A stretch of DNA of 64,000 nucleotides, taken from positions 128,001 to 192,000 of the forward strand of contig OZ219865.1 of the NCBI GenBank assembly GCA_964291675.2, read 5' to 3'. The position numbers and the translations under genes were made by a program. Numbering within the stretch: the stretch's first letter is position 1; each line of letters starts with the position of its first letter. Origin of the DNA: Alphaproteobacteria bacterium. GTDB lineage: Bacteria; Pseudomonadota; Alphaproteobacteria; MPNO01. This document shows positions 3,419 to 64,000 of the stretch, in pieces. The notes beneath the pieces are model-generated. The model saw only the letters and a program-made list of their open reading frames with translations, was not told the DNA's origin and ran no database searches.

Positions 3419-3552
3419 GTCATGCCCGGACTTGATCCGGGCACCCATGCAGCCTCTCGGCGCGCACAACGACCCGTGGGGGGGGGGGGTGGCGCCGGTG
3501 GGTGGCCGGATCAAGTCCGGCCATGGGTGCCCGGATCAAGTCCGGGCATGAC
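3419..3552. repeat. REP-like palindromic repeat cluster (GTCATGCCCGGACTTGATCCGGGCA family)
   Basis: gtcatgcccggacttgatccgggcaccca plus two inverted copies ending ggatcaagtccgggcatgac. Confidence 0.85.
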
Positions 3553-7099: not shown

Positions 7100-7208
7100 G
7101 TCATGCCCGGACTTGATCCGGGCACCCACTGGCGCCGCCACTTCTCCCTGCCGGGCGCGTCCCGGGCGGCGGGGCCGCATGGATGCCCGGAACAAGCCCG
7201 GCCATGAC
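7100..7208. repeat. REP-like palindromic inverted pair
   Basis: gtcatgcccggacttgatccgggcaccca ... tggatgcccggaacaagcccggccatgac. Confidence 0.85.
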
Positions 7209-8738: not shown

Positions 8739-10007
8739 ATGCTCAGAAAGGGCGGCGGCAACTGGGTCGAGGGAGACCGGTTCTTCGACCGGGAGTTCGA
8801 GCTCCAAGCGCTGGAAGAGCGGGTCCGGGAGGGCATCCACACCCTGCTGACGGCGCAGCGGCGCATGGGCAAGACCAGCCTCGTGCGCGAGCTTCTGCGG
8901 CGGCTGGGCGACACGGGCGGGTTCGAGACGGTCTTTGCCGACCTTGAGGCCGCCACGGACCCGGCCGATGCCATCGCCGAGATCGGCGTCCAGGCGCGGC
9001 CGCTGCGCGGCGCGTGGGGCCGGATCGAGTCCGGTTTCGTCAACGTCCTGAGAGCGGCCGGCGACCGGATCGAGGAGCTTTCGCTGTCCGACCTCAAGGT
9101 GAGACTGCGCGCGGGGATCGATGCCGGCAACTGGCCGCAGCGAGGCGATGCGGTGTTCGCGGCCCTGGCGGCGAGCGACCGGCCCGTCGTTCTCGCGCTC
9201 GACGAGCTGCCGATCCTCGTCAACCGGCTGCTCAAGGACGAGACGGGCGTCGTCACCCCGGAGGGGAGGGGGCGGGCGGACTCGTTCCTGAGCTGGCTGC
9301 GCCGGAACGGGCAGACCCATCGCGGCCGGGTCACGATGATCCTGTCGGGCAGCGTCGGGCTCGAACCGCTGCTGGAGCAGGCCGGGCTCAGCGCCCATGC
9401 CAACATTTTTTCCGCCTACGATCTCGAACCCTGGAGCGAGGAGACCGCCGCGTCCTGCCTGGCGGCGCTCGCCGGGACCTACGGCATCGGGCTCCCGCCG
9501 GAGGTCGGCGCGGACATGTGCCGGCGCCTGCGCTGCTGCATCCCGCACCACGTGCAGATGTTCTTCGACAAGCTTCACGACCGGCTCCGGCGTGACGGCC
9601 GGCGGGACGCAGCGCTGGAGGACTCGGCGTGGGTCTACGGGCAGGAGATGCTGAGCGTGCGCGGTCAGGTCGATCTGCAGCACTACGAGGGCCGGCTGGA
9701 GACCGTCTTGGGGCGGGCGGGATATCCTGTCGCGCTTGAGCTGCTGACCGCGGCCGCGGTCGAAGGACTCCTGGACGACGATGCGCTCGACCGCTACGGC
9801 GCGCATTTCGCGGACCGGGCCGAGGACGGCGCGCCCTCGGTCGAGCATGTGCTGCACGTGCTGGAACATGACGGCTACCTGGAGCGGCGGGAGGGCGGCT
9901 ACCGGTTCGTCTCGGGGCTGCTGGAGGACTGGTGGCGCGGGCGTTACGGCCGGGGCTTCGTCGCTGCCGTCGAGCCTGCCGGACGACCGCCGGGAGCGGA
10001 CCGATGA
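8739..10007 (+). CDS. P-loop ATPase (STAND/archaeal-ATPase-like)
   Basis: FFDRE-EL pre-motif, Walker A AQRRMGKTS, Walker B VVLALDELP, C-terminal LEHDGYL (wHTH-like). Confidence 0.8.
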   Translation: MLRKGGGNWVEGDRFFDREFELQALEERVREGIHTLLTAQRRMGKTSLVRELLRRLGDTGGFETVFADLEAATDPADAIAEIGVQARPLRGAWGRIESGFVNVLRAAGDRIEELSLSDLKVRLRAGIDAGNWPQRGDAVFAALAASDRPVVLALDELPILVNRLLKDETGVVTPEGRGRADSFLSWLRRNGQTHRGRVTMILSGSVGLEPLLEQAGLSAHANIFSAYDLEPWSEETAASCLAALAGTYGIGLPPEVGADMCRRLRCCIPHHVQMFFDKLHDRLRRDGRRDAALEDSAWVYGQEMLSVRGQVDLQHYEGRLETVLGRAGYPVALELLTAAAVEGLLDDDALDRYGAHFADRAEDGAPSVEHVLHVLEHDGYLERREGGYRFVSGLLEDWWRGRYGRGFVAAVEPAGRPPGADR

Positions 10008-12466
10008 CCGTGACGGCGAGAAAGTACAACCCGGGCTTCCTCACCGACGACGAGCTGGTGGCGTCCTTCTGCGTGCGAACCGACGAGTTCGAGTCGATGA
10101 TGGAAGCCCTGCGCGAGCCTTCGGGCGATTCGAACGCACATCAGATCGTCATCGGCCCGCGCGGCAGCGGCAAGACGAGCCTTCTGCTGCGGGTCGCGGT
10201 GGAGATCCGGCGGGACGCGCAGCTCTCCACCCGTTTCTTCCCCGTCGTCTTCGCGGAAGAAAGCTACGAGGTCTCCACCGCCGGCGAGTTCTGGCTCGAA
10301 GCCCTGTCCCGCCTCGCCGACCGGGCGCCGAACGGCGAAGACGGCCCCGACCTGCGCCGCACGTTCGAGGAGCTGCGCCAAATCCGGGACGACCGGACGC
10401 TGGGGGATCGTTGCCTCGGCGCGCTCCAGGATTTCGCCGACCGCGAAGACCGGCGCCTCGTGCTGATGGTCGAGAACCTCAACATGCTGTTCCGGGACAT
10501 GGCGGACCGGGAAACGGCGGGGTGGCGGCTGCGCCAGACGCTCCAGACCGAGCCCCGCATCCTCCTGCTGGCGAGCGCGACCAGCCGGTTCGACGAGATG
10601 GAGGACCCCAAGCGCGCGCTCTACGACCTGTTCCGGACGGTCGCGCTGCGTCCCCTCGACGCGGAGGATTGCGCGACCCTCTGGCAAACCGTCACCGGCC
10701 AGGAACGGGCGCCGGGCACGATCCGGGCCTTGCGTATCCTTACCGGCGGCAGCCCGCGATTGCTCACCATCGTCGCCCGCTTCGGCGCGGAGCTGTCGTT
10801 TCGCGAGCTGATGGCCGACCTGCTCGACCTGGTCGACGACCACACCGAGTATTTCAAGAGCCACCTCGACGCCCTGCCGGCGCAGGAGCGCCGCGTCTAT
10901 CTCGCGCTTGCCGAGCTCTGGAAGCCGGCCACCGCGCGCGAGATCGCCGACCGGGCGCGGTTGGAGACCAACAAATGCAGCGCGCAGCTCGCCCGCTTGA
11001 CCGAGCGCGGCGCGGTCGAGGTGACCGGCGGCACGGCGCGGCGCAGGCTCTACTACCTCTCCGAACGGCTCTACAACATCTACTACCTGATGCGCCGCAC
11101 CCGCGGCCCGGCGCCCATGATCGAAGCTTTGGTTCGCTTCATGGAGGGGTGGTACTCGGTCGACGAGTTGAAAGAATTCGGCGCCCGGATGGCGCGGGAA
11201 GCGCCGGGTCTCGACGACGGGACGCTGGGGCTTTACCGGATTGCGTTTCAGCAACTCCTCCGACTGCCGTCGCTGGCGCCGCACCGCGAGGAATTGCTTT
11301 CGCTTGCGTCATGGATCGGTGACATCGGTCCCGATGATGACCCTCACGCCCCGGCTGCCAACTTGACTGCTAGGGCCGTCTTCGACAGGGCGATCGAACT
11401 CGCGACCGACGGGCGCCTTGAGGAGGCGGTAAATGCTTGGGATGAGGTCATTTGGCGTCTACGGGACAAAGGGGCTCCAACAGATCTTGAGGGGGTCGCG
11501 ACAGCGCTCCTGAACAAGGGTGTGGCGCTAGGCAAGATGGACCGGCCAATCGACGCACTCGCGACGTGGGATGAGGTCGTTCAACGTTTCGGTGAGACCG
11601 ATGATCGACCTCTGGTTCTCGCGGTCGCGGAGGCTCTTTTGAGCAGGGGTAACCTGCTACTGGAGTTGAACAGGCCGGGGGAGGGGATTGAGGCGTGGGA
11701 TGAGGTCGTCCGGCGAAATGTGTCGAGCGAATGGCCGTCCCTTCGCGTTAAGGTGTCAACAGCACTACTTGGCAAGTGTGCTGCCCTGTCGGGGTTGAAT
11801 CGGCCTGAAGAAGCCTTGGCCGTCTGCGACGAGATCGTACAACGCGATGCGAAGAACGATGACCCGCAGGCCATTGGGATACTCGCCTGGGCACTCCTAC
11901 ATAGAGGCAATGTGTTTCTCCGTCAGAGACGGCTCGACGAAGCGTTGGCGGCATGGGAAGAGATCGTACGACGTTTCGAGGCCTCTGATCTGCCGACGCT
12001 TGGGGACTCAGTCGTGATGGCGCTAGTGGGAAAAGCAGCGCTCGATTTGATAAATGGCCGAGCACAGGCTGCCATTGTTGCTATCGACCAGATGCTGCAC
12101 CGGCAGGACGTAGGATCACCGGAGGTAAGATTGCAGGGACACACGATCCGCGCTTGGGCGTACTTGGCGGATGGCGAAATCGAGGCGTGTACGAACGATG
12201 TGGCATCGATACTTGCGATCTTGCCGGACTTCGGTTCCATCCCCAAGGAAGTGCTCGATGGATTGTCCGCGTTCTCCATGGACCTGGGTTCGCAGAATAT
12301 GCTCGATCTGATCCAGGCGTCGCCGGCGGTCGACCTGCTGCTGCCGCTGACGACGGCGCTGGAAATGGAACTCGGGCTGGAACCACGCGTGGCGAAGGAG
12401 GTGGAGGAGGTCGCCGAGGACATCCGTCGCGACTTGGCGGAGCGGCGAAAGGCGCGGCGCGGGTGA
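10004..12466 (+). CDS. STAND-like ATPase with winged-helix and TPR repeats
   Basis: ATGA overlap with the upstream gene. Walker A GPRGSGKTS, Walker B LVLMVENL, GGSPR motif, wHTH-like ATAREIADRARL, and about 6 TPR-like repeats (ALLNKGVAL...ALATWDEVVQRF). Confidence 0.82.
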   Translation: MTVTARKYNPGFLTDDELVASFCVRTDEFESMMEALREPSGDSNAHQIVIGPRGSGKTSLLLRVAVEIRRDAQLSTRFFPVVFAEESYEVSTAGEFWLEALSRLADRAPNGEDGPDLRRTFEELRQIRDDRTLGDRCLGALQDFADREDRRLVLMVENLNMLFRDMADRETAGWRLRQTLQTEPRILLLASATSRFDEMEDPKRALYDLFRTVALRPLDAEDCATLWQTVTGQERAPGTIRALRILTGGSPRLLTIVARFGAELSFRELMADLLDLVDDHTEYFKSHLDALPAQERRVYLALAELWKPATAREIADRARLETNKCSAQLARLTERGAVEVTGGTARRRLYYLSERLYNIYYLMRRTRGPAPMIEALVRFMEGWYSVDELKEFGARMAREAPGLDDGTLGLYRIAFQQLLRLPSLAPHREELLSLASWIGDIGPDDDPHAPAANLTARAVFDRAIELATDGRLEEAVNAWDEVIWRLRDKGAPTDLEGVATALLNKGVALGKMDRPIDALATWDEVVQRFGETDDRPLVLAVAEALLSRGNLLLELNRPGEGIEAWDEVVRRNVSSEWPSLRVKVSTALLGKCAALSGLNRPEEALAVCDEIVQRDAKNDDPQAIGILAWALLHRGNVFLRQRRLDEALAAWEEIVRRFEASDLPTLGDSVVMALVGKAALDLINGRAQAAIVAIDQMLHRQDVGSPEVRLQGHTIRAWAYLADGEIEACTNDVASILAILPDFGSIPKEVLDGLSAFSMDLGSQNMLDLIQASPAVDLLLPLTTALEMELGLEPRVAKEVEEVAEDIRRDLAERRKARRG

Positions 12467-12520
12467 CCCCTGGGCACCCTCCGCAGGGTGCCAGCCGCGC
12501 CCCGACTGAACACGCCGTCC

Positions 12521-12757
12521 GTCATTCCGACCGGAGCTGAGAAATCTCGCGCCCGGCGTCCCACCCCGTCATGGCCGGCCCCCGGATCGAGTCCGGGGGT
12601 GATCCGGCCATTCATGCCGCGCCTCCGCCCGCGAGGCGGCCGGTCGGAAGAGGTGGCAGCGCCCGTGGGTGCCCGGATCAAGTCCGGGCATGACGTGGGG
12701 GGTGGCAAAGAGATTTCTCCGCTCCGCCTCGCTCCGTCCGGGTCCGGTCGAGATGAC
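12521..12757. repeat. Composite REP cluster (GTCATTCCGACCGGAG...GAGAAATCTC family enclosing a GTCATGGCCGG pair)
   Basis: Outer inverted pair gtcattccgaccggag..gagaaatctc / gagatttctc..ccggtcgagatgac; inner REP pair at about 12568-12695. Confidence 0.7.
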
Positions 12758-12826
12758 GACGGGGGGAGGGCCCTCCCCCATTTACCATTTGCCGCGCCGC
12801 TCCGTTTCGCCCCATAAACTCCGGCC

Positions 12827-14476
12827 ATGCTGAGCGCGCTCTCCGTCCTCCGACGCGGACCGCCGGCCGACCCGGTGTCGGGCTGGTCGGTGGCGACGCT
12901 CGCGCTCGGGCTCGTCCTGATCGGGCCGTTCGTCGCGCTGCTCTACGCGATGACCGGGGATTCGGGCGGGCTCTGGCTGCATCTGATGGAGACCGTCTTT
13001 CCGCGCTATGTCGGCAACACGGTGGCACTGATGGCGGGCGTCGGGTCGGTCAGCCTCGCCTTCGGGCTGAGCACGGCGTGGCTGGTCACGCGCTACGAGT
13101 TCCCGTTCTCGCGGCTGCTCGACTGGGCGCTGCTGCTGCCGGCGACGGTGCCGGCCTATATCATCGCCTACGCCTATACCGACCTGCTGGAATATGCCGG
13201 GCCGGTGCAGGGGCTGCTGCGCGAGGCCTTCGGCTGGTCGTCGGCGCGCGACTACTGGTTCCCCGAGATCCGCTCGCTCGGCGGCGCCGTCCTGGTGATG
13301 GGCTCGGTGCTCTACCCCTATGTCTATCTGATGGCGCGCACCGCGTTCCGCCTCACCCCCGCCTCCTACTACGAGGTCGCGCTGCTGCACGACCGCAATG
13401 TCGCCTTCTCGGTCGGCATCCCGCTGGCGCGCCCGGCGATCGTCGCCGGGCTGGCGCTGGTGCTGATGGAGGTGGTGTCGGATTTCGGCACGGTCGAGTA
13501 TTTCGCGGTCGAGACGCTGACCCTCGGCATCTTCAATGTCTGGCTCGGCATGAACAACTTGACCGCCGCGGCGCAGATCGCGGGTGTCGCCTTCGTGTTC
13601 ATCCTCGGCCTCTTGTTCATCGAGCGGCGCGCGCGCGGGCAGCAGCGCTTCTTCGATCCGTCGACGCCGCGCGAGGGGCTGCGCCCGATGCGCGTCGGCG
13701 GTGCGAAGGCGGCGCTCTGCATCCTGGTCTGCCTGGTGCCGCTGACCGCGGGCTTCGCGGTGCCGGTGGGGGTGCTGCTCTGGTTCGTCGCCGCCGGGCT
13801 GTCGTCGACCGATTACGGCGCGCTCGTCGCCACCGCCGTCAACTCGCTCTCGGTCGCCTTCGCGGCGGCGGCGATCGTCATGGCGGTGGCGCTGGTCACC
13901 GTGATGGTGGTCTCCTACAAGCGCCACCCTGCGCTCGGCGCGCTGACCGCGGTCTCGGCGATGGGCTATGCGTTCCCCGGCACCGTGCTCGCCATCGGCG
14001 TGGTGGTGTTCGCCGGTGCGCTCGATTCCGCGGTCGAGGCCGTCGTCGAGCGCGTGCTCGGCGCCGGGTTCGACGGGCTCCTGATCGGCGGCGTCGCGCT
14101 GCTGGTGGCGGGCTACGTGGTGCGCTTCCAGGCGATCGGCTACGGCGCCATGGTGGCCGGGGTGAAGCGGCTGCCGCCCAACATCATGAACGCGAGCTAC
14201 GTGCTCGGGCGCGGCTTCTCGCGCAGCCTGGTGACGCTGGCGCCGCCGCTGTTGCGCAAGTCGATCCTCGCCGGCGGGCTGCTGGTCTTCGTCGACGTGA
14301 TGAAGGAGCTGCCGATGACCCTGCTGCTCCGCCCGTTCGATTTCGAGACCCTGGCCACCTATGTCTACCAGTTCGCCACCGACGAGCTGCTGGAGCACTC
14401 GGCGCTCGCCGCGCTCGCCATCGTCGCCGCCGGCCTCGGCCCGGTGATCTGGATGAACGCCTCGCAGCGGCGGTGA
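12827..14476 (+). CDS. Fe(III) ABC transporter permease (FbpB/SfuB-like)
   Basis: Duplicated permease architecture with PAYIIAYAYTD, LYPYVYL-AR, SDFGTVEYF, KELP-TLLLRPF-FETLAT. Confidence 0.92.
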   Translation: MLSALSVLRRGPPADPVSGWSVATLALGLVLIGPFVALLYAMTGDSGGLWLHLMETVFPRYVGNTVALMAGVGSVSLAFGLSTAWLVTRYEFPFSRLLDWALLLPATVPAYIIAYAYTDLLEYAGPVQGLLREAFGWSSARDYWFPEIRSLGGAVLVMGSVLYPYVYLMARTAFRLTPASYYEVALLHDRNVAFSVGIPLARPAIVAGLALVLMEVVSDFGTVEYFAVETLTLGIFNVWLGMNNLTAAAQIAGVAFVFILGLLFIERRARGQQRFFDPSTPREGLRPMRVGGAKAALCILVCLVPLTAGFAVPVGVLLWFVAAGLSSTDYGALVATAVNSLSVAFAAAAIVMAVALVTVMVVSYKRHPALGALTAVSAMGYAFPGTVLAIGVVVFAGALDSAVEAVVERVLGAGFDGLLIGGVALLVAGYVVRFQAIGYGAMVAGVKRLPPNIMNASYVLGRGFSRSLVTLAPPLLRKSILAGGLLVFVDVMKELPMTLLLRPFDFETLATYVYQFATDELLEHSALAALAIVAAGLGPVIWMNASQRR

Positions 14477-22031: not shown

Positions 22032-22229
22032 CCGGCCCAAGCGCCGCCGTTCGTCGTTGCGACCGCAGCGCCGTCAGGCAAGGGGCGGAGAAATCTCGTC
22101 CCCACCGCCCCCTGCGTCATGGCTGGCCCCCGGGGCAAGCCCGGGGGCGTTCCGGCCCTCCACGCGGCCGCTCCGCCCGCAGGTCGGACGGGACGGGTGG
22201 CGACGCCCATGGTTGCCCGGATCAAGCCC

Positions 22230-22558
22230 ACTGCTGTCCGGTTTGGATGAGCTGGACCGGGCGCAAAGCCTCGGTACGCGCGGATTTCCGGCCCATCCGC
22301 CGGATCGGGACACGGATCGCGACACGCGCGACGCGTCGTCGCATGCCGCCGTCGCCCCCGGCCCTCCCTCGTCATGCCCGGACTTGATCCGGGCATCCAA
22401 GGGCGCCGCCGCCCGTCTCGTCGGACCGTCGTGCGGGCGGAGAGGCCGCGTGGATGGCCGGATCAAGTCCGGCCATGACGTAGGGGTGACAGCGGGAGCG
22501 GAGATGCAGATGTTCACGGGCGCGGAGCCCGCGCCGAAAATCTAAACCGGACAGCAGT
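22230..22558 (+). mobile_element. MITE-like element with 11-bp target duplication inside a REP palindrome
   Basis: TIRs actgctgtccggttt / aaaccggacagcagt; perfect direct flank GGATCAAGCCC at 22219-22229 and 22559-22569; internal REP pair. Confidence 0.8.
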
Positions 22559-22724
22559 GGATCAAGCCCGGGCATGACGAAGAGGGAGCGCAGGGCGACG
22601 GCGGAACGCGACCACGCGACGGGCCGGGTCGACATGACGGGAGAGGACGGCCGGCCGGCGGCGATGCGAACAAAGCTAGAACATCTTGGCCGGCCCGGGC
22701 GACATGTGCTACAGCAGGGTCGCC

Positions 22725-23623: not shown

Positions 23624-23755
23624 GCATGCCCGGACTTGCCCCGGATCACAGTCCGGGGCTTGATCCGGGCATCCATGGGCGCCGCCACCGCTACCGACCG
23701 GCGGCCGTGCGGGCGGATCGGCTGCATGGATGGCCGGATCGAGTCCGGCCATGAC
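23624..23755. repeat. REP-like palindromic cluster
   Basis: gcatgcccggactt..ggcttgatccgggcatcca ... tggatggccggatcgagtccggccatgac. Confidence 0.75.
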
Positions 23756-27239: not shown

Positions 27240-27367
27240 GGCGCCGTTGTGGCCGAGCGCGGCGCGACTCGCAAGGGCGGTCCCTTGCCTCCCGTCATTT
27301 CAACCCGAGCCGCGAGGAGGGCGACGGCTCTCTCCCCGCCCCGCCCATGGATGCCCGGATCAAGTCC

Positions 27368-27975
27368 GCTGCTGTCTGGTTTAGATTTTCGGCGCGGGCT
27401 CCGCGCCCGTGAACATCTGCATCTCCGCTCCCGCTGTTACCCCTACGTCATGGCCGGCCCCCGGATCAAGTCCGGGGGTGATCCGGCCATCCACGCGGCC
27501 TCTCCGCCCGCACGACGGTCCGACGAGAGGGGCGGCGGCGCCCATGGATGCCCGGATCAAGTCCACTGCTGTCCGGTTTAGCCTTCGACGCGGGTCGCGC
27601 CCGGCGTTCCCCGCCCAGCGCTATGCCTCCCCCATCGTCATGCTCGGACTTGATCCGGGCATCCACTGGCGCCGCCGCCTCTCCCGACGGGGCGTTGTAC
27701 CGGTGGCGCCAGTGGTTGCGCGGATCAAGTCCGCGCATGGGTGGCCGGATCAAGTCCGGCCATGACGGGGTGGGGGTGGCGGTGGAGGAGCACGGGAGCC
27801 GGGTGCGGCCCGCCCCGCCCGTGGGTGCCCGGAACGAGGCCGGGGTGACAACGGAGGGGCAGGGACGGCAAGTGCGGGCGTGCGGCGATCCGTGTCCCGA
27901 TCCGGCGGCTGGTCCGGAAATCCGCGCGTACCGAGGCTTTGCGCCCGGTCCAGCTCATCCAAACCGGACAGCAGT
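27368..27975 (-). mobile_element. Composite/nested MITE-like element(s) within REPs
   Basis: TIR-like starts at 27368 (gctgctgtctggttt) and 27565 (actgctgtccggttt), one end at 27975 (aaaccggacagcagt). Flanks ggatcaagtcc/ggatcgagtcc; ends are the reverse complement of the 22230 element ends. Confidence 0.72.
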
Positions 27976-28129
27976 GGATCGAGTCCGGGCATGACGGGGC
28001 GGGAGGCATGGTGCTGGGAGCGGGCCGCACCCGGTTCGCCATGCACCGCCCATGCGCGCCACCCCGCTTCAACCCGCCGCCCCCCGATGGCATGATCCGG
28101 CGGCACGCATTCGAGCGGGAGAGGCGGCG

Positions 28130-54944: not shown

Positions 54945-55590
54945 GGATGGTCGAGCCGTCGCGCGCCTTGCGCGAGATCTGCAGCAGCCCGCCCTTCTCG
55001 TCATACCAGAAGTCGCGCGTGGCCTTGCCCGTCACCCGGTAGCGCAGCGCCGGGATCGTCCGGCCGCCGAGCTTGAGCGCCGTCTTCTCCGGCGGGCTGA
55101 CGGCGATCGCGTCGACCGCGCCGGTGACCGTGTTGATCACCGATTTCTCGGCCAGCACGTCGACGTTCCAGAACTCCGAGGTCTTGAGCTTCCGGTCCAC
55201 GATGCGCGATCCGGCGGTGCCCGCGATCGCCAGCCCGTCCGTGCGCGCGCTCACGTTGAGGCGGGATTTTTCGCCGTTGTTGTCCGTTGTGGCGGTGTAG
55301 CTCTGCACCATCCCGCCCCGCCACACCGAACGCGCGCTGCGCTCGAAGCGGTGAACCGTGACGAAGAACTTCTTCACCTTGATCTCGACCCTGGTGTCGA
55401 CCACCAGCCGCTCGCCCTCGCGCGCGAAGGTGAGCACCTGGCGGCCGATCTCGTCGCCGTCCCGGGTGATGGTGAATTCGAGCCGCTTGCCGGGCGGAAC
55501 CCAGGGCTCCGCCAAGGCCGGGAAGATCGGGAGAGTCGCCGCCAGCGTGGCGGCGAGGAGAATGGCCGTACCCGCGATCTTCATGGTCAT
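54928..55590 (-). CDS. DUF6134-like exported protein
   Basis: Signal peptide, F-ITRDGDEIG, FWYDEKG-L. Confidence 0.65.
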   Translation of the reverse strand: MTMKIAGTAILLAATLAATLPIFPALAEPWVPPGKRLEFTITRDGDEIGRQVLTFAREGERLVVDTRVEIKVKKFFVTVHRFERSARSVWRGGMVQSYTATTDNNGEKSRLNVSARTDGLAIAGTAGSRIVDRKLKTSEFWNVDVLAEKSVINTVTGAVDAIAVSPPEKTALKLGGRTIPALRYRVTGKATRDFWYDEKGGLLQISRKARDGSTILTRRR

Positions 55591-56726
55591 GTCCTGAAAT
55601 GCTTGGAGAGTTGCAGCCGCTGGCCCTGATAGGCCGAGCCGATGCCGCGGCCGTAGATCCGGTCCGAAATGTCGGTCAGCCGGAGATAGCGCAGCCCGCC
55701 GATCACCTGCTCGTGCTCGAGCAGGAAGGGCACGTCGTGGCTGCGCACTTCGAGCACCGCGCGGCTGCCCGCGCCGCCGGCCCCGTCCCAGCCGAACCCG
55801 GGGTCGAAGAAGCCGGCGTAGTGGACGCGGAACTCGCCGACCTCGGTGTCGTAGGCGATCATCTCGGCGGCATGATCGGGCGGCACGGCGATCGCCTCGC
55901 GGGTCGCGAGGATGTAGAAGTCATCCGGGTTCAGGATGATCCCGCGCCCGGGGCAGGCATGGATGGGCTCCCAGAAATCGTTCGCGTCGTAGCCGCCGAC
56001 AAGGTCGAAATCGACGATCCCGGTATGCTGCTTGGCGCGGAAGCCGATCAGCGAGCCGCTGCCGTCCCCTTCGAGGTCGAGGCGGAGCGGCAGCCCGCCG
56101 TCGCGGCGCCCGGAACCCTCCATCTCGGGATCGACGAGTCCGACATCCTGCTGCAATTGCCGCAGCCTCGTGGCCGGGATGACGGGCGTGCCGCGGTGCA
56201 GGCGGAGCTGGTTCAGCCGGCTTCCCTTGCGGACCAGGATGGAGAATGTGCGCGGCGAGACTTCGGCGTAGAGGCGGCCGTGATAGCCGCGCGCGACGGC
56301 ATCGAAGCGGCTCGACCGGTCGGTGATCAGCCGGGTGAAGACGTCGAGCCGGCCGGTCGAGCTGCGCGGATTGGCGAAGGCCGCGATCGGGCTGTCGAGC
56401 GCCAGGTGTTCGAGCAGGGGGACGATATAGACGCAGCCGCGCTCCAGCACCGCGCCGCCCTCCAGGTCGATCTCGTGCATCCCCAACGCCTCGACCTTCT
56501 CATCCACCGTGGCCTCCGGCCCCGGCAGGAAGCTCGCCTGCACCCGGTAGGCCACCGGGCCGAGGCGCAGATCGAGGCTGGCCGGCTGGATCATGTCCCG
56601 GGCGAACTCGCTGGTCGCGGCGATCGTCCGGTCGCGGATCAGCGCCGCGATGGTCTGCGCGGGGAAAATACCGGTGCCCGACGGCGAGGACGGGCCGCCG
56701 GACGGGAACAGCGAGTCGGAAGTCAC
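55587..56726 (-). CDS. dcd: dCTP deaminase (long alphaproteobacterial form)
   Basis: [54 protein letters not shown]. Confidence 0.92.
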
Positions 56727-56899
56727 CGGCGGGCGGCCTCGGAATGGAGTGCGCGACGGCGCCGCGACAGGCGCGTCGGGAAAGGGTAGCGATTCCGCGC
56801 CGGCGATCAACGGCGCCGGCCGCCGCCGGGCATTGCCGTTTGATCTCGGTTGCGAAGGCGGCTAGATTCGCAATGGCTGCGCGTATCGACGGGGTACCG

Positions 56900-57091
56900 A
56901 TGAGATTTTTCGGCCGGCGCGCGCTCGGGAACCTTCTCCGCTGCTCGTTCTGCGGCAAGAGCGAGCATGACGTCCGCAAGCTGATCGCCGGCGGGGGTAA
57001 CACGGTGCTCATCTGCGACGAGTGCGTCGAAATCTGCGTGGACATCATCCGCGACTCCAACGGGACCGAGCAGCCCCGTCATCCCGGGTAG
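56900..57091 (+). CDS. Stand-alone ClpX C4-type zinc-finger protein
   Basis: [30 protein letters not shown] followed by a stop; no AAA domain. Confidence 0.75.
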
Positions 57092-57246
57092 TCCCGAAAG
57101 GCCCCTGTGAGGCGCCGACGCGAGCCGCGCCGCCGAGGAAGGGTAGCGATTCCACCCCAGCGATCGATGATGTCGGCATCCGCCGTCATTTCGACCGACC
57201 CCGGACTCGTTCGGGGGAAACGGAGAAATCTCCCTGACTCCCTACA

Positions 57247-57267
57247 TCATGCCCGGACTTGATCCGG
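57247..57267. repeat. Truncated REP palindrome at the island boundary
   Basis: tcatgcccggacttgatccgg is followed by unrelated lower-GC sequence instead of the usual gcaccca/gcatcca tail. Confidence 0.65.
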
Positions 57268-57472
57268 AGACACAAAGAACCCCAGACTGGTAACGACGCG
57301 CTCCGACGCGTAACGACCGATTTTCTACTAACTTGTTGTCGTACATCGTGTTTTTTGCCCTGCATCAGCCTCCCGCCCCTTGCATTTCGACACTCAAGTC
57401 CCTAGATTCGACGCTGACTTGACGTCCAGAACTCACGATTTGATGACTGGTTTTCGGGTCGGGGGAAACGGG

Positions 57473-58657
57473 ATGCCGAAGCGAAGCACCCTCAGACTGA
57501 CCAAGCGGATTGTGGAGCGGCTGAAGACCGAGGGCAAGGACGCGATCTTCTGGGACCGCGACCTGGCCGGCTTCGGTGTGCGGGTCCACACCACCGGGCG
57601 CAAGCTCTACATCGTCCAGTCGCGCGGGCCGGCCGGCCTGAAACGGGTCACCCTCGGCCGGGTCGGCACCGAGACGGTCGACGTGCGCCGGCGCGAGGCC
57701 GCAGCCGTCATCGACCGCATCAAGCGGGGCGAGGATCCGATCCCTTCGGAACCGCCGCCTGAACCCACCGTTGCCGATCTGGCCGAGCGCTGCCTTGAGA
57801 AGTTCGTAGCCGTGCGGTGCAAGCCGAGCACGGCCAGGAACTACCGGCTGGCCATCCAGCACCACATCCTCCCCGCCCTGGGAGAGAAGGCCCTGAAGGA
57901 TGTCGGGCCGGAGGACGTGACGGCGCTGCACCACGCGCTGCGGGACAGGCCCGCGGCGGCCAATCAGGCGACGTGGGTGCTTTCCAGGATGTTTGCGCTC
58001 GCCGAGAACTGGGGGATGGTGCCGCCCGGCCGCAAGCCGACCCGCCATGTCCGCCAATACCGCGCGACATCCCGCGAGCGGTTCCTGACACCCGAGGAGT
58101 ACCGGCTTCTCGGCGCGACGCTGACCAGGCTGGAAACCGAGGGCTCGATGATGCCCTCCGCTGTCGCGGCGATCCGCCTGCTGATGCTGACCGGCTGCCG
58201 GTCGGACGAGATCCTCACCCTGAAATGGGACGACATCGACCGTACGGCGCGGGTGCTGCGGTTGCGCGATTCGAAGACGGGTCCCCGCATGGTGCCGCTG
58301 ACCGGGCCGGTGCTGAAGGTGCTCGACGGCATCGAGCGGGAAGACGGCGTTCCCTGGGTCCTCCGGGGCGCCAAGCGGGGTTCCCGGCTGGCCTGCCTCT
58401 CTCACCACTGGCGGTGGATCAAGCGGGAGACCGGGCTCCGCGACGTGCGGGTCCACGACCTCAGACATTCCTACGCCTCCCGCGCGCTCGCCCTGGGCGA
58501 GGGCCTGCCGGCGATCGGCCGGCTGCTCGGCCATGTCCGGGTCTCCACCACCGCCAAGTACGCTCACCTGGTGCGCAACGCGGAGAAGACAGCCGCCGCC
58601 CGCACCGGCGACAGCATCGGCGCCCAGATCGTTCCGGGCCGCGCCGAGGCGGCGTAA
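57473..58657 (+). CDS. Tyrosine recombinase/integrase with N-terminal arm-binding domain
   Basis: WDRDLAGFGVRV, TGCRSDE, SKTG, HDLRH, LLGH, TAKYAH. Confidence 0.95.
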   Translation: MPKRSTLRLTKRIVERLKTEGKDAIFWDRDLAGFGVRVHTTGRKLYIVQSRGPAGLKRVTLGRVGTETVDVRRREAAAVIDRIKRGEDPIPSEPPPEPTVADLAERCLEKFVAVRCKPSTARNYRLAIQHHILPALGEKALKDVGPEDVTALHHALRDRPAAANQATWVLSRMFALAENWGMVPPGRKPTRHVRQYRATSRERFLTPEEYRLLGATLTRLETEGSMMPSAVAAIRLLMLTGCRSDEILTLKWDDIDRTARVLRLRDSKTGPRMVPLTGPVLKVLDGIEREDGVPWVLRGAKRGSRLACLSHHWRWIKRETGLRDVRVHDLRHSYASRALALGEGLPAIGRLLGHVRVSTTAKYAHLVRNAEKTAAARTGDSIGAQIVPGRAEAA

Positions 58658-58669
58658 GGAGACCGCGCG

Positions 58670-59848
58670 ATGGCAGTGCACAAGAGGAGCCTCACCAACC
58701 GCGCTGTAGCGGCGCTCAAAGTCGAGCGCGACACGGTCTACTGGGACCGCGACCTCCCCGGCTTCGGGGTCCGGGTCTATCCCGGCGGCGGCAAGGTCTT
58801 CATCGCCCAGGCGCGGGAGCCCGACAAGACAACCAAGCGGGTGACGGTCGGACGGCACGACGTGCTCAATGCCGACCAGGCCCGCCAGCGGGCGGCGTTC
58901 ATCATCACGCGCATCAGGGCGGGCGAGGATCCGGTGCCCCTGCCGCTCGCGGCCAGGCTCAACGGCGGTCCGACCGTGGCCGACCTCGCCGAGCGCTATC
59001 TCGAAGAGCATGCCGCGGTGCGGATCAAGCCGAGGACACGGCTGCGCGTCCGCGGCATGCTCCGCAATCACATCCTGCCGGCTCTCGGCAGGCTGCCGCT
59101 CGAGGCGGTGGAGCCGAGCCATGTCGTCGAGCTGCACCAGACGCTGTCCGACCGGCCGATCACCGCGAACAAGTGCGTCAAGGTCCTGTCGCACATGTAC
59201 CGGCTTGGCGCGGGATGGGGCCTGGTGCCGGAGGGCTTCAATCCCTGCAGGTCGGTCGAGAAATACCCCGAGCGGTCCCGCGAGCGTTTCCTCACCGATG
59301 CCGAGTTCGCCCGGCTGGGGCGGGTGCTGGACGAGGCGGTCGACAGCGGCGGCGCTCCGCTGAAGGCCGTGACGGCGATCCGCCTGCTGATACTGACCGG
59401 CTGCCGCAAGAGCGAGATCCTGACCCTGCGCTGGTCCGACGTCGATCTCGACACCGGCGAGCTCCATCTCGGCGAAGCCAAGACCGGTCCCCGTGCGGTC
59501 CAGCTGGCGCCGACGGCGGTGGCGCTATTGGAAGCGCTGCCGCGACGGAAGGACAGCCCCTGGGTGTTCCCCGGCAACGACCGCAACGGGCGCTACAGCG
59601 GCGGCGGTCTCGACCATGCCTGGCGGACCGTGCGGGCTGCGGCCGGGCTGCAAGACGTCAGGCTTCACGACCTCAGACACAGCTTTGCGTCCCGTGCGCT
59701 GGCGCTCGGCGAGACCCTGCCGGTGATCGGCAAGCTGCTCGGCCACAGCGACATCGAGACGACGGCGCGCTACGCCCATCTGGCGCAGGATTCGATCCAA
59801 GAGACGGCGGAGCGGATCGCCGAGAGCATTGCAGCCGACATACTGTAG
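58670..59848 (+). CDS. Second tyrosine recombinase/integrase (tandem paralog)
   Basis: WDRDLPGFGVRV, TGCRKSE, AKTG, HDLRH, LLGH, TARYAH. Confidence 0.95.
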   Translation: MAVHKRSLTNRAVAALKVERDTVYWDRDLPGFGVRVYPGGGKVFIAQAREPDKTTKRVTVGRHDVLNADQARQRAAFIITRIRAGEDPVPLPLAARLNGGPTVADLAERYLEEHAAVRIKPRTRLRVRGMLRNHILPALGRLPLEAVEPSHVVELHQTLSDRPITANKCVKVLSHMYRLGAGWGLVPEGFNPCRSVEKYPERSRERFLTDAEFARLGRVLDEAVDSGGAPLKAVTAIRLLILTGCRKSEILTLRWSDVDLDTGELHLGEAKTGPRAVQLAPTAVALLEALPRRKDSPWVFPGNDRNGRYSGGGLDHAWRTVRAAAGLQDVRLHDLRHSFASRALALGETLPVIGKLLGHSDIETTARYAHLAQDSIQETAERIAESIAADIL

Positions 59849-59878
59849 GGACTCTGCTTGGGTTCCCGCAGCGACCCT

Positions 59879-59917
59879 GTGCGGCTGCACGACTTACGCC
59901 ACTCTTGTGCGGCATAG
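59879..59917 (+). pseudogene. Integrase box-II remnant
   Basis: Translates as VRLHDLRHSCAA*. Confidence 0.55.
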
Positions 59918-60405
59918 CCTCCTAACACACTGTTATCATTGATATAATTTTTCTGATACAAAATCCGTAACCGAATAGTCACCGGATTCGATCATATCCT
60001 AGGCGACGCATGAGTAAACGTTTCGACGGGCCGTCCTGATCGGCTGAAATGCGCCGTTTTCGCGCGCCGGACGCAGTGGCGGGCGGTGGGCTCCACGGCC
60101 GGATGGAACGTTTACGCGCGTGGCGCATCCCGCGCCTGCTGAGCCCCACCTATCCGGAATCGCCCATCCCACAGCAACAGCCTTGGCCGCCACGTCGGTA
60201 CATGGTCCAGCCGCCTTTGACAGTGGAGCGAGGTTCCAAGGCCGCGCCATGGCGGTGCGCGTCATAGTTGATCCACACGGTTCAAAGTCCAAAAAGTATT
60301 GCTTTTCACCTGAGAGCAGTTATGTTATTGGTTTTCGTGACCAGTTATCGTTTTGCACGAAATGGCGGCGAGTTCGCACCGCTACGGGAGCGTAACAATT
60401 TAGTC

Positions 60406-61956
60406 ATGAACACCCCCGCTCAGAACTGTTTTTCGGGTCCTGTTACCGTCTTTCAGGAACGGCGTATTCCCGTGCCAGCGACACCAGCGGGATACGCTGC
60501 GCTGGTCGGGGCATACAATCTGCGAGTGCCGCTTCCCCGGAACCTCAGCGCCATTGGTGAACGGCACAGGTTCATCGAGCAAGACGGCTGGCGCATCTAT
60601 TCACCGCGCTACACGCCGGACGCAAGCCTGGAAGGTCATCTCACCTTCGCTCTCAAATATGAAGGGCTGGACCTGGCCGTCCTCAAGAGGCTGTTTGTCG
60701 CGACCGGCCCGTCCCCTTTGGCCGACCTGGTCAAGGCCCAGCCAACAGGCGCCTACGCCCGGCGCATCTGGTTCCTCTATGAGTGGCTGACCGGAGCGCA
60801 GCTCGATCTCCCGAACGCCAGCAGGGGGGTCTACCCGCTAGTCGTCGATCCGAACCAGCAATATGCCGTCCCCGCGGAAACGTCCCCGCGGCACCGGGTC
60901 AAGAACAATCTGCCCGGCACGCCGGCTTTTTGTCCTTTGGTGTTCCGCACCGAAGCACTGGAGGGTTTCATCGCCACAGACCTGCAAGCACGCGCGCAGC
61001 AGGCCATTGCCGCCGTGCCGCGTGATCTGCTCGCGCGCACGGCTGCCTTTCTGCTTCTCAAGGACTCGAAGTCGAGCTTCGCCATTGAGGGCGAGCATCC
61101 TCCGCAGGACCGCATCCAGCGTTGGGCCCGCGCCATTGGCCAGGCCGGGCAGCAATCGATTGATCATGACGAACTCCTGCGTTTGCAACGCATCGTGATC
61201 GGAGACGACCGTTTCGTTCATCTCGGTCTCCGGGCCGAAGGCGGCTTTGTCGGTCAACACGACCGCGAATCGCGTATGCCGATCCCCGACCACATCAGCG
61301 CCCGATCGGATGATCTGCCGCAGCTGGTGGAAGGATTGGTCGCTTTCGACCGAGAATCCGCCCAACAGCTCGATCCGGTAGTTGCTGCATCGGTTCTGGC
61401 CTTCGGATTTGTCTACATCCATCCCTTTGACGACGGGAACGGCCGGCTGCACCGTTACCTGATTCACCACGTCCTGGCCCAGCGCGGTTTCAACCCGCCG
61501 GGACTCGCATTTCCGGTATCGGCGGCGATTCTGGACCGGATCGACGACTACCGTGCTGCGCTCGAAGATTACTCGCAACGCTTGCTGCCGTTCGTGCGGT
61601 GGGAACCGACGGAACACGGCAATGTTCGGGTGTTGAACGATACCGGCGACTATTACCGGTATTTCGATGCCACGCCGCAAACCGAGTTCCTGTTCAGCAG
61701 CGTGCAGCGGACTATCGAACTGGACTTGCCACAAGAAGCAGAATTTCTGAGGCGGTACGACGCGTTTCGGAACGACCTCAACCTGATCGTCGATATGCCA
61801 GATCGCCTGTCGGATCTACTCTTCCGATTCCTGCACCAAAATGCCGGTACGCTTTCTCGCCGCCGGCGGGAAAGGGAATTCGCTGCGCTGACAGACGACG
61901 AGGTCGCGCATATCGAAGCCATTTACCGGGAAGCATTCGCCGGCGACCAATGTTGA
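60406..61956 (+). CDS. Fic-domain protein
   Basis: HPFDDGNGRLHR motif; SSFAIEGE resembles the inhibitory helix. Confidence 0.92.
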   Translation: MNTPAQNCFSGPVTVFQERRIPVPATPAGYAALVGAYNLRVPLPRNLSAIGERHRFIEQDGWRIYSPRYTPDASLEGHLTFALKYEGLDLAVLKRLFVATGPSPLADLVKAQPTGAYARRIWFLYEWLTGAQLDLPNASRGVYPLVVDPNQQYAVPAETSPRHRVKNNLPGTPAFCPLVFRTEALEGFIATDLQARAQQAIAAVPRDLLARTAAFLLLKDSKSSFAIEGEHPPQDRIQRWARAIGQAGQQSIDHDELLRLQRIVIGDDRFVHLGLRAEGGFVGQHDRESRMPIPDHISARSDDLPQLVEGLVAFDRESAQQLDPVVAASVLAFGFVYIHPFDDGNGRLHRYLIHHVLAQRGFNPPGLAFPVSAAILDRIDDYRAALEDYSQRLLPFVRWEPTEHGNVRVLNDTGDYYRYFDATPQTEFLFSSVQRTIELDLPQEAEFLRRYDAFRNDLNLIVDMPDRLSDLLFRFLHQNAGTLSRRRREREFAALTDDEVAHIEAIYREAFAGDQC

Positions 61957-61998
61957 ACGCGAACAGAATCCAAATAACACCGGGATCGCCGTCAGGCG

Positions 61999-62619
61999 TT
62001 GCCTTCGTTCAATCCCTACCAAGCGCCCCGGAGTCTGCACGCCGTGTTAGATCATATCGTAGCAATCATTAACGATCTCGACGCAACCGATTGGATCGCA
62101 ATTGCCTCGATGCTGACGGCGGTCCTTGCCACGAGTGAAGCCTTCCGAAGCCGCCGCATCTCGTCCCGAATGTACGATATCGCCGTTCGTGAAAAACTCC
62201 GAACCGAAACACCTCTCGACGTCTATCTGGCGGACTCGCGCATCCTCCACGTCCCCAGGGAACAGCGCCGAGTCTATGTGTTCGAACTCTTGATCACGAA
62301 CAAGTCGGCGGCGCCCAATTCCATCAAGCAGTTATCGCTCTCCCTTGACTACGACCAACAGAATCGACCTGCATCGAATCTTGCGATTCAGCACGACCCA
62401 AAAGCTCTCGATACCTCTCCTACCGGCCAAGTGGGCAACGCTCTATCCGTACCCAGACTTATCGCTCCCGGCGAGGCCATCTCGGGAACCGCTCTCTTTC
62501 CCGTCGCCGATGTCATTTTGGAGCATGGGCCAGTCGAAATGTACACGGTACAGCTATTCGATGCTCACGACAGGGCTGCCGAATGCCAGGCAATCCTTCT
62601 GAAGGAAACCGAGTTGTGA
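61999..62619 (+). CDS. Hypothetical protein with N-terminal transmembrane segment (start uncertain)
   Basis: 206-aa ORF with hydrophobic WIAIASMLTAVLA; GTGA coupling to the next ORF. Confidence 0.55.
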   Translation: MPSFNPYQAPRSLHAVLDHIVAIINDLDATDWIAIASMLTAVLATSEAFRSRRISSRMYDIAVREKLRTETPLDVYLADSRILHVPREQRRVYVFELLITNKSAAPNSIKQLSLSLDYDQQNRPASNLAIQHDPKALDTSPTGQVGNALSVPRLIAPGEAISGTALFPVADVILEHGPVEMYTVQLFDAHDRAAECQAILLKETEL

Positions 62620-63275
62620 AACCAAAGCGCAATATCGTCAAGATCCCCCTCCGAGACGCCACCGAGGCCGATCCGGTTCCGATCGTCGCCGACGGAGCCA
62701 TGGCCACGGCTCTTTGGGGCGAGGGCCGCATGATCCCGGTCTTGATAATCGACACGTCGACCCGGCCAGACGTCGAGAACTTCATCACCTCGCAGTATTG
62801 GGCGGAAATCGTCGGAGATACCGAATCCAGCTGGTCTTTCAAGAAACGCCCGAGAAGCCTTCCACGGCCGATCTTGCTACTGAACTTCATCAAACCAAGC
62901 CAGTGTCTCTTGATGATCGAGTTCGACCTTCCCCGCCAAGGCGTGCTGGTCGATCAAATCCTCTGGTCTCACGGCGTCTACTTGCAGCCGGGCCGGCCAG
63001 GCGACCGGCTGGCTACCACTCTCAAGAACCCGAGGATCACCGTCGAGGTGCCACCCAACGAGATATTCCGTGGAGAGTTCGAGAATGTTTACAAGAAAGC
63101 CGTATTTCGCCACTTGCGTAGCGAGGGGATGTCTCGCGCCCATGCGAAGCAGGCGGTCAACGCTTACCTCCGAATACAACGAGATGTCTTTCATCAGCGT
63201 GTTCCCTTCCGCCGCCCAAGCGACGACGCCGTGTCGGAGTTTCCAGATGAGACCACCGACTCCCGTTCGTCATAG
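62616..63275 (+). CDS. Hypothetical protein
   Basis: Open frame with protein-like composition, coupled to the upstream stop. Confidence 0.55.
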   Translation: MKPKRNIVKIPLRDATEADPVPIVADGAMATALWGEGRMIPVLIIDTSTRPDVENFITSQYWAEIVGDTESSWSFKKRPRSLPRPILLLNFIKPSQCLLMIEFDLPRQGVLVDQILWSHGVYLQPGRPGDRLATTLKNPRITVEVPPNEIFRGEFENVYKKAVFRHLRSEGMSRAHAKQAVNAYLRIQRDVFHQRVPFRRPSDDAVSEFPDETTDSRSS

Positions 63276-63694
63276 AGATTAACCACGGCGCCGGGCTGCC
63301 GCGCCACCAATGCGACCGAAATCGCCTGATTCGCCTCCATCTTGTTGTGTTCCGGGAGTCTCTGACTTTCGACGTTCCGCGCTACCCGAAGGATGGTCCT
63401 GGAAGCGACAGCGACGATGAGGTCACCTCCATGGTGCCCACTCCCGATCGCACAGCCTCAAACGATCACTCTAGTTCGGGTAGGCGGCCCACGGCGGAGG
63501 GTTACGTCAAGCTGCCCGCCGTGGCAGCCTGAGCGTCCCGGCCCAACCCGCCGGTTACCGGGACCGACGCCAGGCTCTTACGCCCAGTGACAAGACACAA
63601 TCCACGCTCAGCGTGTAAGGGCAACGACACCCGATTCGCTATCATCACGACAGGCTGCGGCGGTACCGGTCGGAGCCGAGCGCCATTACGGCAT

Positions 63695-63857
63695 CTGTGG
63701 ATATGATGGACAAGCCGCTGCGCGCCTTGCCCACATTCCCACAGGCGCCACAGCAGCAACAGGAAGATCGATCCAAGGGGATTCTGGCGGCCTGAACTTC
63801 AACCGGAATACACCTTAGCTCGGCCGTCAGGCTGTCCGAAAAGGCGAGGCCACCTCA
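63695..63857 (+). mobile_element. IS3-like element right-end remnant
   Basis: gtggatatgatggacaagccgctgcgcgccttgcccacattcccacag, tail ...DRSKGILAA*, and terminal ctgtccgaaaaggcgaggccacctCA resembling IS3-family IRs. Confidence 0.5.
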
Positions 63858-64000
63858 GCAGATAGAGAGCCGGAGAGCGCTGTTTGGGCCTCAATTGACC
63901 TCTGCCAACTGGTCCACGTTTTATGATTCGGAGCTTGATCCGATGATGGGCCATGCCTTGCCCGATGCTATGTTTGGGTGGCGCGGCTCAGACAGGGGGA

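Follow-up and report, generated by a model that had tools for sequence, protein, structure and literature searches.

The paralogous tyrosine recombinases XerC and XerD form a heterotetramer on a short site that is almost a palindrome, and they have no arm-binding domains. In tripartite integrative and conjugative elements (ICEs), several integrases act on separate sites. Repetitive extragenic palindromic (REP) sequences are targets of the insertion sequences (IS) IS1397/ISKpn1 and of the IS110-family ISPpu9/ISPpu10, which are IS-sized and encode DDE or DEDD transposases. Here we analyzed a pair of adjacent tyrosine integrase genes, intA and intB, in a stretch of 64,000 nt (contig OZ219865.1, positions 128,001 to 192,000, of an Alphaproteobacteria bacterium), which we call the window. 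The pair follows a REP that is cut within its stem, and the DNA from position 57268 onward is very probably the left part of a genomic island inserted in this REP.

Several described elements carry more than one recombinase. In the excerpted text of Bardaji et al. (2017, PMC5385486), GInt islands carry ginABCD, that is, three integrase-like genes plus a gene for a small helix-loop-helix protein, and multiple recombinases are experimentally required. The excerpts of Idola et al. (2023, PMC10214605) describe the SE elements (intA-tfp-intB-srap) and Tn554 (tnpA/tnpB/tnpC) as having one ordinary and one large recombinase, with the accessory proteins Tfp, Srap and TnpC, and imperfect terminal inverted repeats of 13–19 bp. 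In the same excerpts, several SE recombinases are experimentally required, and SEs are found in Gammaproteobacteria only.

A REP is broken at the left end of the integrase pair

The features at the left end are as follows.

57198..57217, + strand: imperfect REP-like hairpin of the second REP type, in the chromosomal flank (3-mismatch match at 57200-57215)
57248..57267, + strand: truncated REP, the chromosomal (B) side of the proposed attL, with the left arm, the loop and the first 5 nt of the right arm
57268..57472, + strand: non-coding left end of the element (putative P' arm), conserved in 5 loci, opening with (G/A)GACACAA
57473..58657, + strand: intA, P4-type (arm-domain) tyrosine integrase of 394 aa, first of the pair
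58670..59848, + strand: intB, paralogous tyrosine integrase of 392 aa, 12 nt after intA

The REP core CCCGGACTTGATCCGG was found 32 times in the window with at most 3 mismatches, against 1.59 occurrences expected from shuffles, a density of about one copy in 2 kb. The sequence of the main type, with its copies in register, is cgtcATGCCCGGActtgaTCCGGGCAycca, with 9-bp inverted arms and a 5-nt loop. Four copies on the + strand (3425, 7106, 22377 and 23653) each have an inverted partner 81 nt downstream, as in REPIN doublets. An abundant short palindrome with inverted doublets at a fixed spacing is a repeat of the REP/REPIN type. Clusters of up to 8 copies were also seen (doublets or clusters at 3425-3546, 7106-7202, 22130-22572, 23629-23749 and 27355-27989), and the REPs of the window sit within longer composite units with the edges gagaaatctc and gagatttctc.

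The copy at 57252-57267 begins with the usual lead-in (catcatg) and then reads AGACACAAAG. Eleven other copies in the window have at most one mismatch; 9 of them run on as [G/C]CAYCCA and 2 as GGGCCGG, which is the second REP type. None of the 11 continues with AGACACA as the junction copy does. The REP is thus broken after ...GATCCGG, at position 57267. When folded as single-stranded DNA, intact REPs formed stems of 8-9 bp at about -12 kcal/mol and the junction REP kept a 5-bp stem at -4.9 kcal/mol. The truncated REP has neither the GCAYCCA tail nor an inverted REPIN partner, and zero REP copies were found across 57268-64000. Together with the hairpin at 57198..57217 it forms one composite repeat, in a context like that of composite units elsewhere in the window.

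At the junction the GC content, about 70% over the window, falls from ~0.70 to 0.58-0.60. It returns to ~0.70 across both integrase genes and is 0.56-0.63 over 59900-64000. The cut REP and intA are separated by 205 nt of this lower-GC DNA, in which an alignment of 5 loci gave a mean column identity of 77%. Two GTAACGAC repeats lie here, at 57290-57297 and 57310-57317, and may be arm-type sites; the related string GYAACGAC occurs 7 times against 3.14 expected. A promoter scan of the left end (57268-57472) gave no site.

IntA and IntB are 48% identical (E 6e-110), with no gene between them. Both contain the Pfam domains Arm-DNA-bind_3 (E 9.3e-8 in IntA and 8.5e-11 in IntB, both past the cut-off), Phage_int_SAM_3 and Phage_integrase (E 5e-26 and 9.6e-18 for the two proteins). 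The catalytic set is R243/K268/H328/R331/H354/Y363 in IntA and R246/K271/H333/R336/H359/Y368 in IntB. By domain content and catalytic residues, both are classified as tyrosine recombinases of the arm-domain (P4-type) class. A prediction of the IntA-IntB complex from alignments scored 0.30 against a mark of 0.32, in a comparison without control runs.

No tRNA or small RNA was found that could serve as the target. ARAGORN reported 0 tRNA and 0 tmRNA genes in the whole window; Rfam gave 0 matches at the gathering score in the window and 0 at E<=1 in 56400-57600. In 28 related loci, described below, there is no tRNA within 4 kb upstream of IntA.

These results bear out, with high confidence, the earlier note on this DNA, which had reported the REP cut after ...GATCCGG at 57267 and the following lower-GC DNA: continuation, stem and GC content all change there. 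Its description of two co-oriented paralogous integrases 12 bp apart, each with an arm domain and an R-K-HxxR-H-Y set, was confirmed by the Pfam matches, the 48% identity and the catalytic columns, and its statement that the junction shows no tRNA agrees with both searches. The feature that it placed at 57247..59917 is real; the end at 59917 is arbitrary, as IntB ends at 59848 and the island runs past 64000.

A REP cut at one stem position recurs in the subclade of the window

One scan of genome contigs with IntA as query gave 30 loci (L001 to L030), and both proteins were then compared with all of them by tblastn. Most of the record titles are metagenome-assembled genomes (MAGs) titled Alphaproteobacteria; the others name Gammaproteobacteria, Rhodospirillales, Rhodobacterales, Candidatus Poriferihabitaceae and Gemmatimonadetes.

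Subclade 1, with IntA 85-91% identical, comprises 7 loci: the window, L001, L002, L003, L005, L017 and L026. The left end is readable in five of them (window, L001, L002, L017 and L026) and is replaced or cut off in L003 and L005. All five readable left ends adjoin a REP that is cut at the identical base of the stem. The order at each junction is the REP lead-in, the left arm, the loop, (T)CCG(G/T) and then the conserved element end (G/A)GACACAA, which has diverged to GAATACAT in L002. The REP of L026 is of the second type and its loop is reversed, with the cut position in the stem unchanged; it can therefore be argued that the stem is what is recognized. The five upstream flanks are unrelated, with no blastn match at E<1e-8 and only low-complexity tblastx matches of at most 38 bits. 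These are therefore five independent sites. At a density of about one REP in 2 kb, an identical REP base at five boundaries would be far beyond chance.

Other insertions were seen near some of these left ends. In L017 (6300-10001), intA is interrupted near its 5' end, at about codon 3, by an insert of the IS66 family, and the left end is kept 3.7 kb upstream. The same insert end of ~170 nt adjoins intA at the same place in L005 (about 2340-2512). Short stretches like those of L017 were found by eye upstream of intA in L003 (1-142).

The integrase pair is conserved as a unit

Wherever the sequence can be read beyond a full-length IntA, in 21 of 21 loci, it goes on with an IntB-type gene or the beginning of one. 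The remaining 9 loci (L016-L018, L021, L026-L030) are IntA fragments, contig ends or two distant single recombinases. Measured in 19 loci, the gap between the two genes is between -13 and +69 nt in 18 of them, including a 4-nt overlap in L004 and L006; it is 1453 nt in L008.

A maximum-likelihood tree was built from 41 sequences: 20 first-position proteins, 19 second-position proteins and 2 other integrases. A single branch (support 93/97) separates the 20 first-position from the 19 second-position proteins, with mirrored subclades on either side. The 2 other integrases, the third integrase of L001 and an upstream integrase of L007, fall outside both groups. The full R-K-H-R-H-Y set is present in 20/20 IntA and 18/19 IntB proteins; the exception is IntB of L001. 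In all 9 close pairs of loci, the ratio of non-synonymous to synonymous substitution (dN/dS) is 0.15-0.36 for both genes, and dS is similar in intA and intB. These ratios indicate that both genes are under purifying selection. The mirrored subclades, the conserved pairing, the retained catalytic residues and the dN/dS values together point to an old duplication that has been inherited and selected as a unit, not to an accident of accretion.

IntB of L001 is cut at residue 355 by an insert that bears the third arm-domain integrase (12262-13582). In L020, an extra C-terminal piece of IntB (residues 332-392) lies directly after intB at 12398-12580 and resembles IntB of the window more closely than L020's own IntB does. 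L020 also has three tandem units of ~47 nt at 9600-9790, at most ~400 nt upstream of intA (by eye).

In a plasmid collection, the nearest relatives were at most 47% identical. The relative on the megaplasmid of Ruegeria sp. TM1040 has no adjacent full-length second integrase in the annotation; a recombinase open reading frame (ORF) of 156 aa lies ~1.7 kb upstream on the opposite strand. A Paracoccus plasmid record has no annotation at the matching site.

Variable cargo follows intB

Downstream of intB the window contains the following.

59849..60267: low-GC spacer, in which similarity to relatives ends
60268..61956, + strand: cargo gene for a Fic-domain protein of a defence-candidate family (TTG start at 60268, profile match from residue 71)
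61999..63275, + strand: cargo, two overlapping ORFs (61999-62619 and 62583-63275)
63276..64000: low-GC island DNA that runs on, with the right end outside the window

The Fic protein matched Pfam Fic (E 1.4e-12), PADLOC PDC-S24 (E 3.3e-205) and SoFic (E 3.5e-17). The PDC-S24 match is near full-length and the HPFDDGNGR motif is intact. The two ORFs at 61999-62619 and 62583-63275 matched nothing in Pfam, PADLOC or NCBIfam. The Pfam scan of intA, intB and the three cargo ORFs showed no transposase domain.

In all loci examined, it is the IntB side that carries low-GC cargo with defence-type genes. This cargo includes a HamB-like PDC-M23B helicase in L005, RES and Xre-type antitoxin domains in L003, subtilase and Trypco2 in L001, and SNase and DUF4238 in L022. 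The cargo of L004 includes an HNH protein, an HTH_17 ORF, TraK_N and TrbI. The downstream regions of subclade 1 are unrelated, except for ~280 nt common to L002 and L005. This segment (L002 12440-12720, L005 4990-5260) lies just after intB and has no Rfam match and no convincing ORF. From this we take the pair to be the conserved module by which islands integrate while their cargo is exchangeable.

On the right side, REP copies, REP tails and sequence like the left end were sought, with nothing significant in 57268-64000 of the window or in 9-10 kb downstream in L001, L002, L003, L005, L017 and L026. The truncated loci L026, L017, L027 and L028 hold no right-end information. A weak REP-like string at 63929-63942 was considered as a right-end remnant and rejected, its score being within the shuffle range. 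L009 is the only element with a candidate right boundary, and no terminal inverted repeats above the shuffle range were found in it. After intB, no excisionase-like ORF was evident by translation in the window, L002 and L005, where small ORFs, at 59849-60300 in the window, lay outside the family-library scans; an HTH_17 ORF was found in L004 only.

On the other side of the junction, the upstream genes are housekeeping ones, including those for a branched-chain amino-acid ABC transporter, a Fur-family regulator, ZnuA and a DUF6134 protein. The nearest features are listed here.

55587-56810, - strand: dCTP deaminase (dcd), upstream flank
56903-57091: 62-aa ClpX-zinc-finger ORF, upstream flank

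A 55-nt direct repeat (76% identity) at 56774-56828 and 57131-57185 flanks the ClpX-zinc-finger ORF; the dCTP deaminase gene begins within the copy at 56774-56828.

Other subclades occupy other targets

REP targeting is not family-wide, as other subclades occupy other sequences. The left ends of these subclades were set from copies in the same genome. The elements of L004, L006 and L007 lie inside three different P4-type integrase genes, directly after AAG ACA GG(G/A), which encodes the catalytic-lysine KTG motif at about residue 270. These elements are islands that disrupt the integrases of other elements. The insertions in the KTG codons are at 9700-9820 in L004, 9699-9820 in L007 and 30-150 in L006, and integrase fragments accumulate upstream of them. 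A separate repeat of 2.67 kb occurs in three copies of 99.9% identity in one genome (OZ243972.1), at L004 1546-4216 and at L007 4467-7134 and 14718-17388; it encodes a distant tyrosine-recombinase homologue (26% identity to IntB).

The elements of L009, L010 and L022, all from one genome, and of L015 open with (G)ACAAAACAAAGC. A 19-nt stretch, GAYCWTGACRARTMATRRC, stands just before the start in L009, L010 and L022, and the preceding sequence is different in L015. The 19-nt stretch has 5 differences between two copies that are otherwise 99.7% identical, and L010 has a free copy of the motif 216 nt away. We tentatively regard this stretch as target-derived.

A third terminus, (A)CCGGGGATTATA, opens the elements of L014, L011, L016 and L018 (one MAG) and of L025, which have unrelated flanks. 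It has CCGGGGA in common with the subclade-1 junction CCGG|GGACACAA, which suggests that CCGG of the REP arm is in or beside the recombination core.

A proposed mechanism and its alternatives

We propose that site-specific recombination brought the island into the right arm of a REP, the first one in a doublet of the REPIN type. A housekeeping block (dcd and the small ClpX-zinc-finger ORF) lies upstream of this REP. With its inverted 9-bp arms and short asymmetric centre, a REP has the shape of a double-stranded core site for a tyrosine recombinase. In the simplest reading, an attP core ending in CCGG(G/A)GACA would recombine with the REP by tyrosine-recombinase chemistry. The REP arm TCCGGG resembles this terminus, and the crossover would fall in or next to the common CCGG(G). 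The conserved 205-nt left end would serve as the P' arm, with the GTAACGAC repeats as possible arm sites. IntA and IntB would act jointly in one synapse, as their conservation suggests, and the island may still be mobile at present. By analogy, such joint action would have parallels in XerC/XerD and in the recombinases of GInt, SE and Tn554. A REP read as an ordinary double-stranded palindromic core explains the data as well as a hairpin does; recognition of a single-stranded hairpin, implied by the earlier note, is not needed for explaining them and is neither supported nor excluded.

The claim of the earlier note that the element integrated into a REP is supported by the five of five readable left ends of close relatives, with their non-homologous flanks. 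Its two-integrase system stands as a stable unit, in view of the conserved pairing, the co-divergence, the catalytic residues and the purifying selection. Its suggestion of many insertion sites is borne out across genomes, where the sites differ; within genomes, the scan showed one copy in each of subclade 1. The junctions of other tandem-integrase copies, which it had proposed to examine, are REP-adjacent at all readable left ends in the subclade of the window and lie elsewhere in other subclades.

Several results weigh against an island that is inserted in a REP by a jointly acting pair. Neither a REP tail nor a REP partner was found in 57268-64000, or in ~9-10 kb downstream in L001, L002, L003, L005 and L017. 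The right junction of the window lies beyond 64000, and it was reached in none of the REP-targeting loci. For this reason REP targeting, although supported, is unproven. Among the three cargo ORFs of the window (60268-63275), the Pfam scan recognized no excisionase type. The subclade-1 genomes show one copy each in the single scan, so that the different sites are known only from comparing genomes. The A and B clades are fixed-different at >=90% in 1 position and fixed-identical at 88, so there is no clear signature of divided DNA specificity; the differences were too few to be mapped onto domains. Lastly, similarity between copies mostly ends right after intB, within a few to 165 nt of its stop, and L009 and L022 are 99.7% identical across 2743 bp only. 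Such breaks could mean that the pair moves or recombines apart from the cargo.

These breaks are the starting point for two other explanations. One keeps the island in the REP and gives up the heteromer: one integrase would carry out integration and excision, and the other would have a separate task, such as action at a second att site, capture or exchange of cargo downstream of intB, multimer resolution or control of directionality. Tripartite ICEs are a precedent for integrases that act on separate sites. The breaks close to the intB stop would fit cargo exchange there, as would the duplicated C-terminal IntB fragment of L020 and the integrase-bearing insert in IntB of L001, and the A and B clades with almost no fixed differences are in line with separate tasks too. 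The tight and conserved adjacency, the strict co-divergence and the retention of both catalytic sets are what an obligate pair would be expected to show, although they are not decisive, and we consider separate tasks rather unlikely. The other explanation takes the mobile unit to be only the left end with intA and intB, a small tyrosine-recombinase transposon of ~2.6-2.75 kb, with unrelated DNA to the right. The common sequence is indeed often just this segment (L009/L022, L004/L007 with 2577 bp, and the window with L002 and L005, where similarity ends at 59841-59848; with L003 it ends at 60012), and the integrase genes are host-like in GC, unlike the DNA to their right. However, in the window, L001 and L002 the sequence after intB contains no remainder of the REP, and for these three loci the minimal 2.7-kb transposon is rejected. 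Low-GC defence-type DNA is on the intB side in every locus examined, and the common tracts include cargo in L009/L010 (4.9 kb, with a PNP_UDP_1 protein) and L012/L013 (>11.5 kb). Short near-identical tracts would likewise arise if resident copies underwent gene conversion, and the sharp breaks are compatible with recombination or gene conversion within the module alone. The small transposon is therefore improbable as a general account.

Accretion of two single-integrase islands in tandem, with REP adjacency by coincidence or through later REP spread, is strongly disfavoured and the least probable of these readings. In its favour, these loci often contain nested and tandem integrase remnants. 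Against it stand one old duplication with mirrored subclades in 19-20 loci of different lineages, purifying selection, and an identical REP cut position in 5/5 unrelated sites. A cut REP without tail and partner is also not the product of REP spread.

On balance we hold it fairly probable that an island is inserted in the REP and that the pair acts jointly. That IntA and IntB form an obligate heteromer is a narrower claim, suggested by sequence conservation, which we find plausible and stop just short of favouring. A still broader picture is offered only tentatively: an undescribed island family in which an obligate heteromeric pair of arm-domain integrases would read short palindromes, here REP stems, as double-stranded cores. 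Such a family would have hundreds of landing sites per genome and subclades retargeted to other short motifs, among them the catalytic-lysine (KTG) codons in integrase genes of other elements, and would act as a general vehicle of defence genes, and of at least one ICE-like element, in uncultured bacteria.

Comparison with known systems

Our full-text search of open-access papers and preprints found no description of a REP-targeting tyrosine recombinase or of such paired integrases. Membership of several known classes was examined and rejected. NCBIfam scores for XerC/XerD were 54-65 bits against cut-offs of 329-335, and integron integrase models gave 41-51 bits against a cut-off of 265. RIT elements have three adjacent recombinases of distinct subfamilies, and only two paralogs are present here. 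BIM modules, described in the excerpted text of Van Houdt et al. (2012, PMC3414803) as one recombinase plus an unrelated protein, are unlike the pair.

As in P4-type (Arm-DNA-bind_3/DUF4102) islands, the integrases have arm-binding, SAM-like and catalytic domains and lie near the island end, and the cargo is variable. Unlike those islands, this one has two paralogous integrases, and its target is a REP stem with no tRNA or tmRNA. A single integrase beside a tRNA or tmRNA attB was not found, and because of both differences the element is not a classical P4-type island.

GInts, as the excerpts describe them, resemble the element in having a multi-recombinase operon at the left end, variable cargo, site-specific insertion without a tRNA and, in most copies, no transfer genes. 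The difference lies in the genes: the element has a pair of close paralogs with arm domains and lacks a fourth gene; the next ORF, Fic, is 420 nt downstream. With two integrase genes only and no ginABCD, GInt identity was rejected. SE and Tn554, in the corresponding excerpts, likewise have two catalytic tyrosine recombinases at the left end and selective targets, and the joint need for recombinases is a feature of theirs. In contrast, the proteins here are of 394 and 392 aa, 48% identical and encoded 12 nt apart with nothing between. No large recombinase or accessory gene of the kind described there is present, and SE/Tn554 identity was rejected as well.

XerC/XerD is the best mechanistic analogy for the pair, although, unlike Xer, the pair has arm domains and is island-borne. 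With the REP-targeting insertion sequences, the element has in common the use of abundant REP palindromes as sites; it differs in its tyrosine integrases and in being a multi-kb island. In function it is most like the multi-recombinase islands, but its composition differs, with a pair of closely related arm-domain proteins and without an accessory gene.

Should the proposed action of the pair be right, it would be a new multi-recombinase architecture beside GInt, SE, Tn554 and RIT. As far as the literature search shows, it would also be the first tyrosine-integrase island with REP palindromes as attB, which would link REP/REPIN biology with the placement of genomic and defence islands. The family would also be a natural series in which to study how the specificity of paired recombinases changes, since subclades whose integrases are 50-60% identical differ in their short targets.

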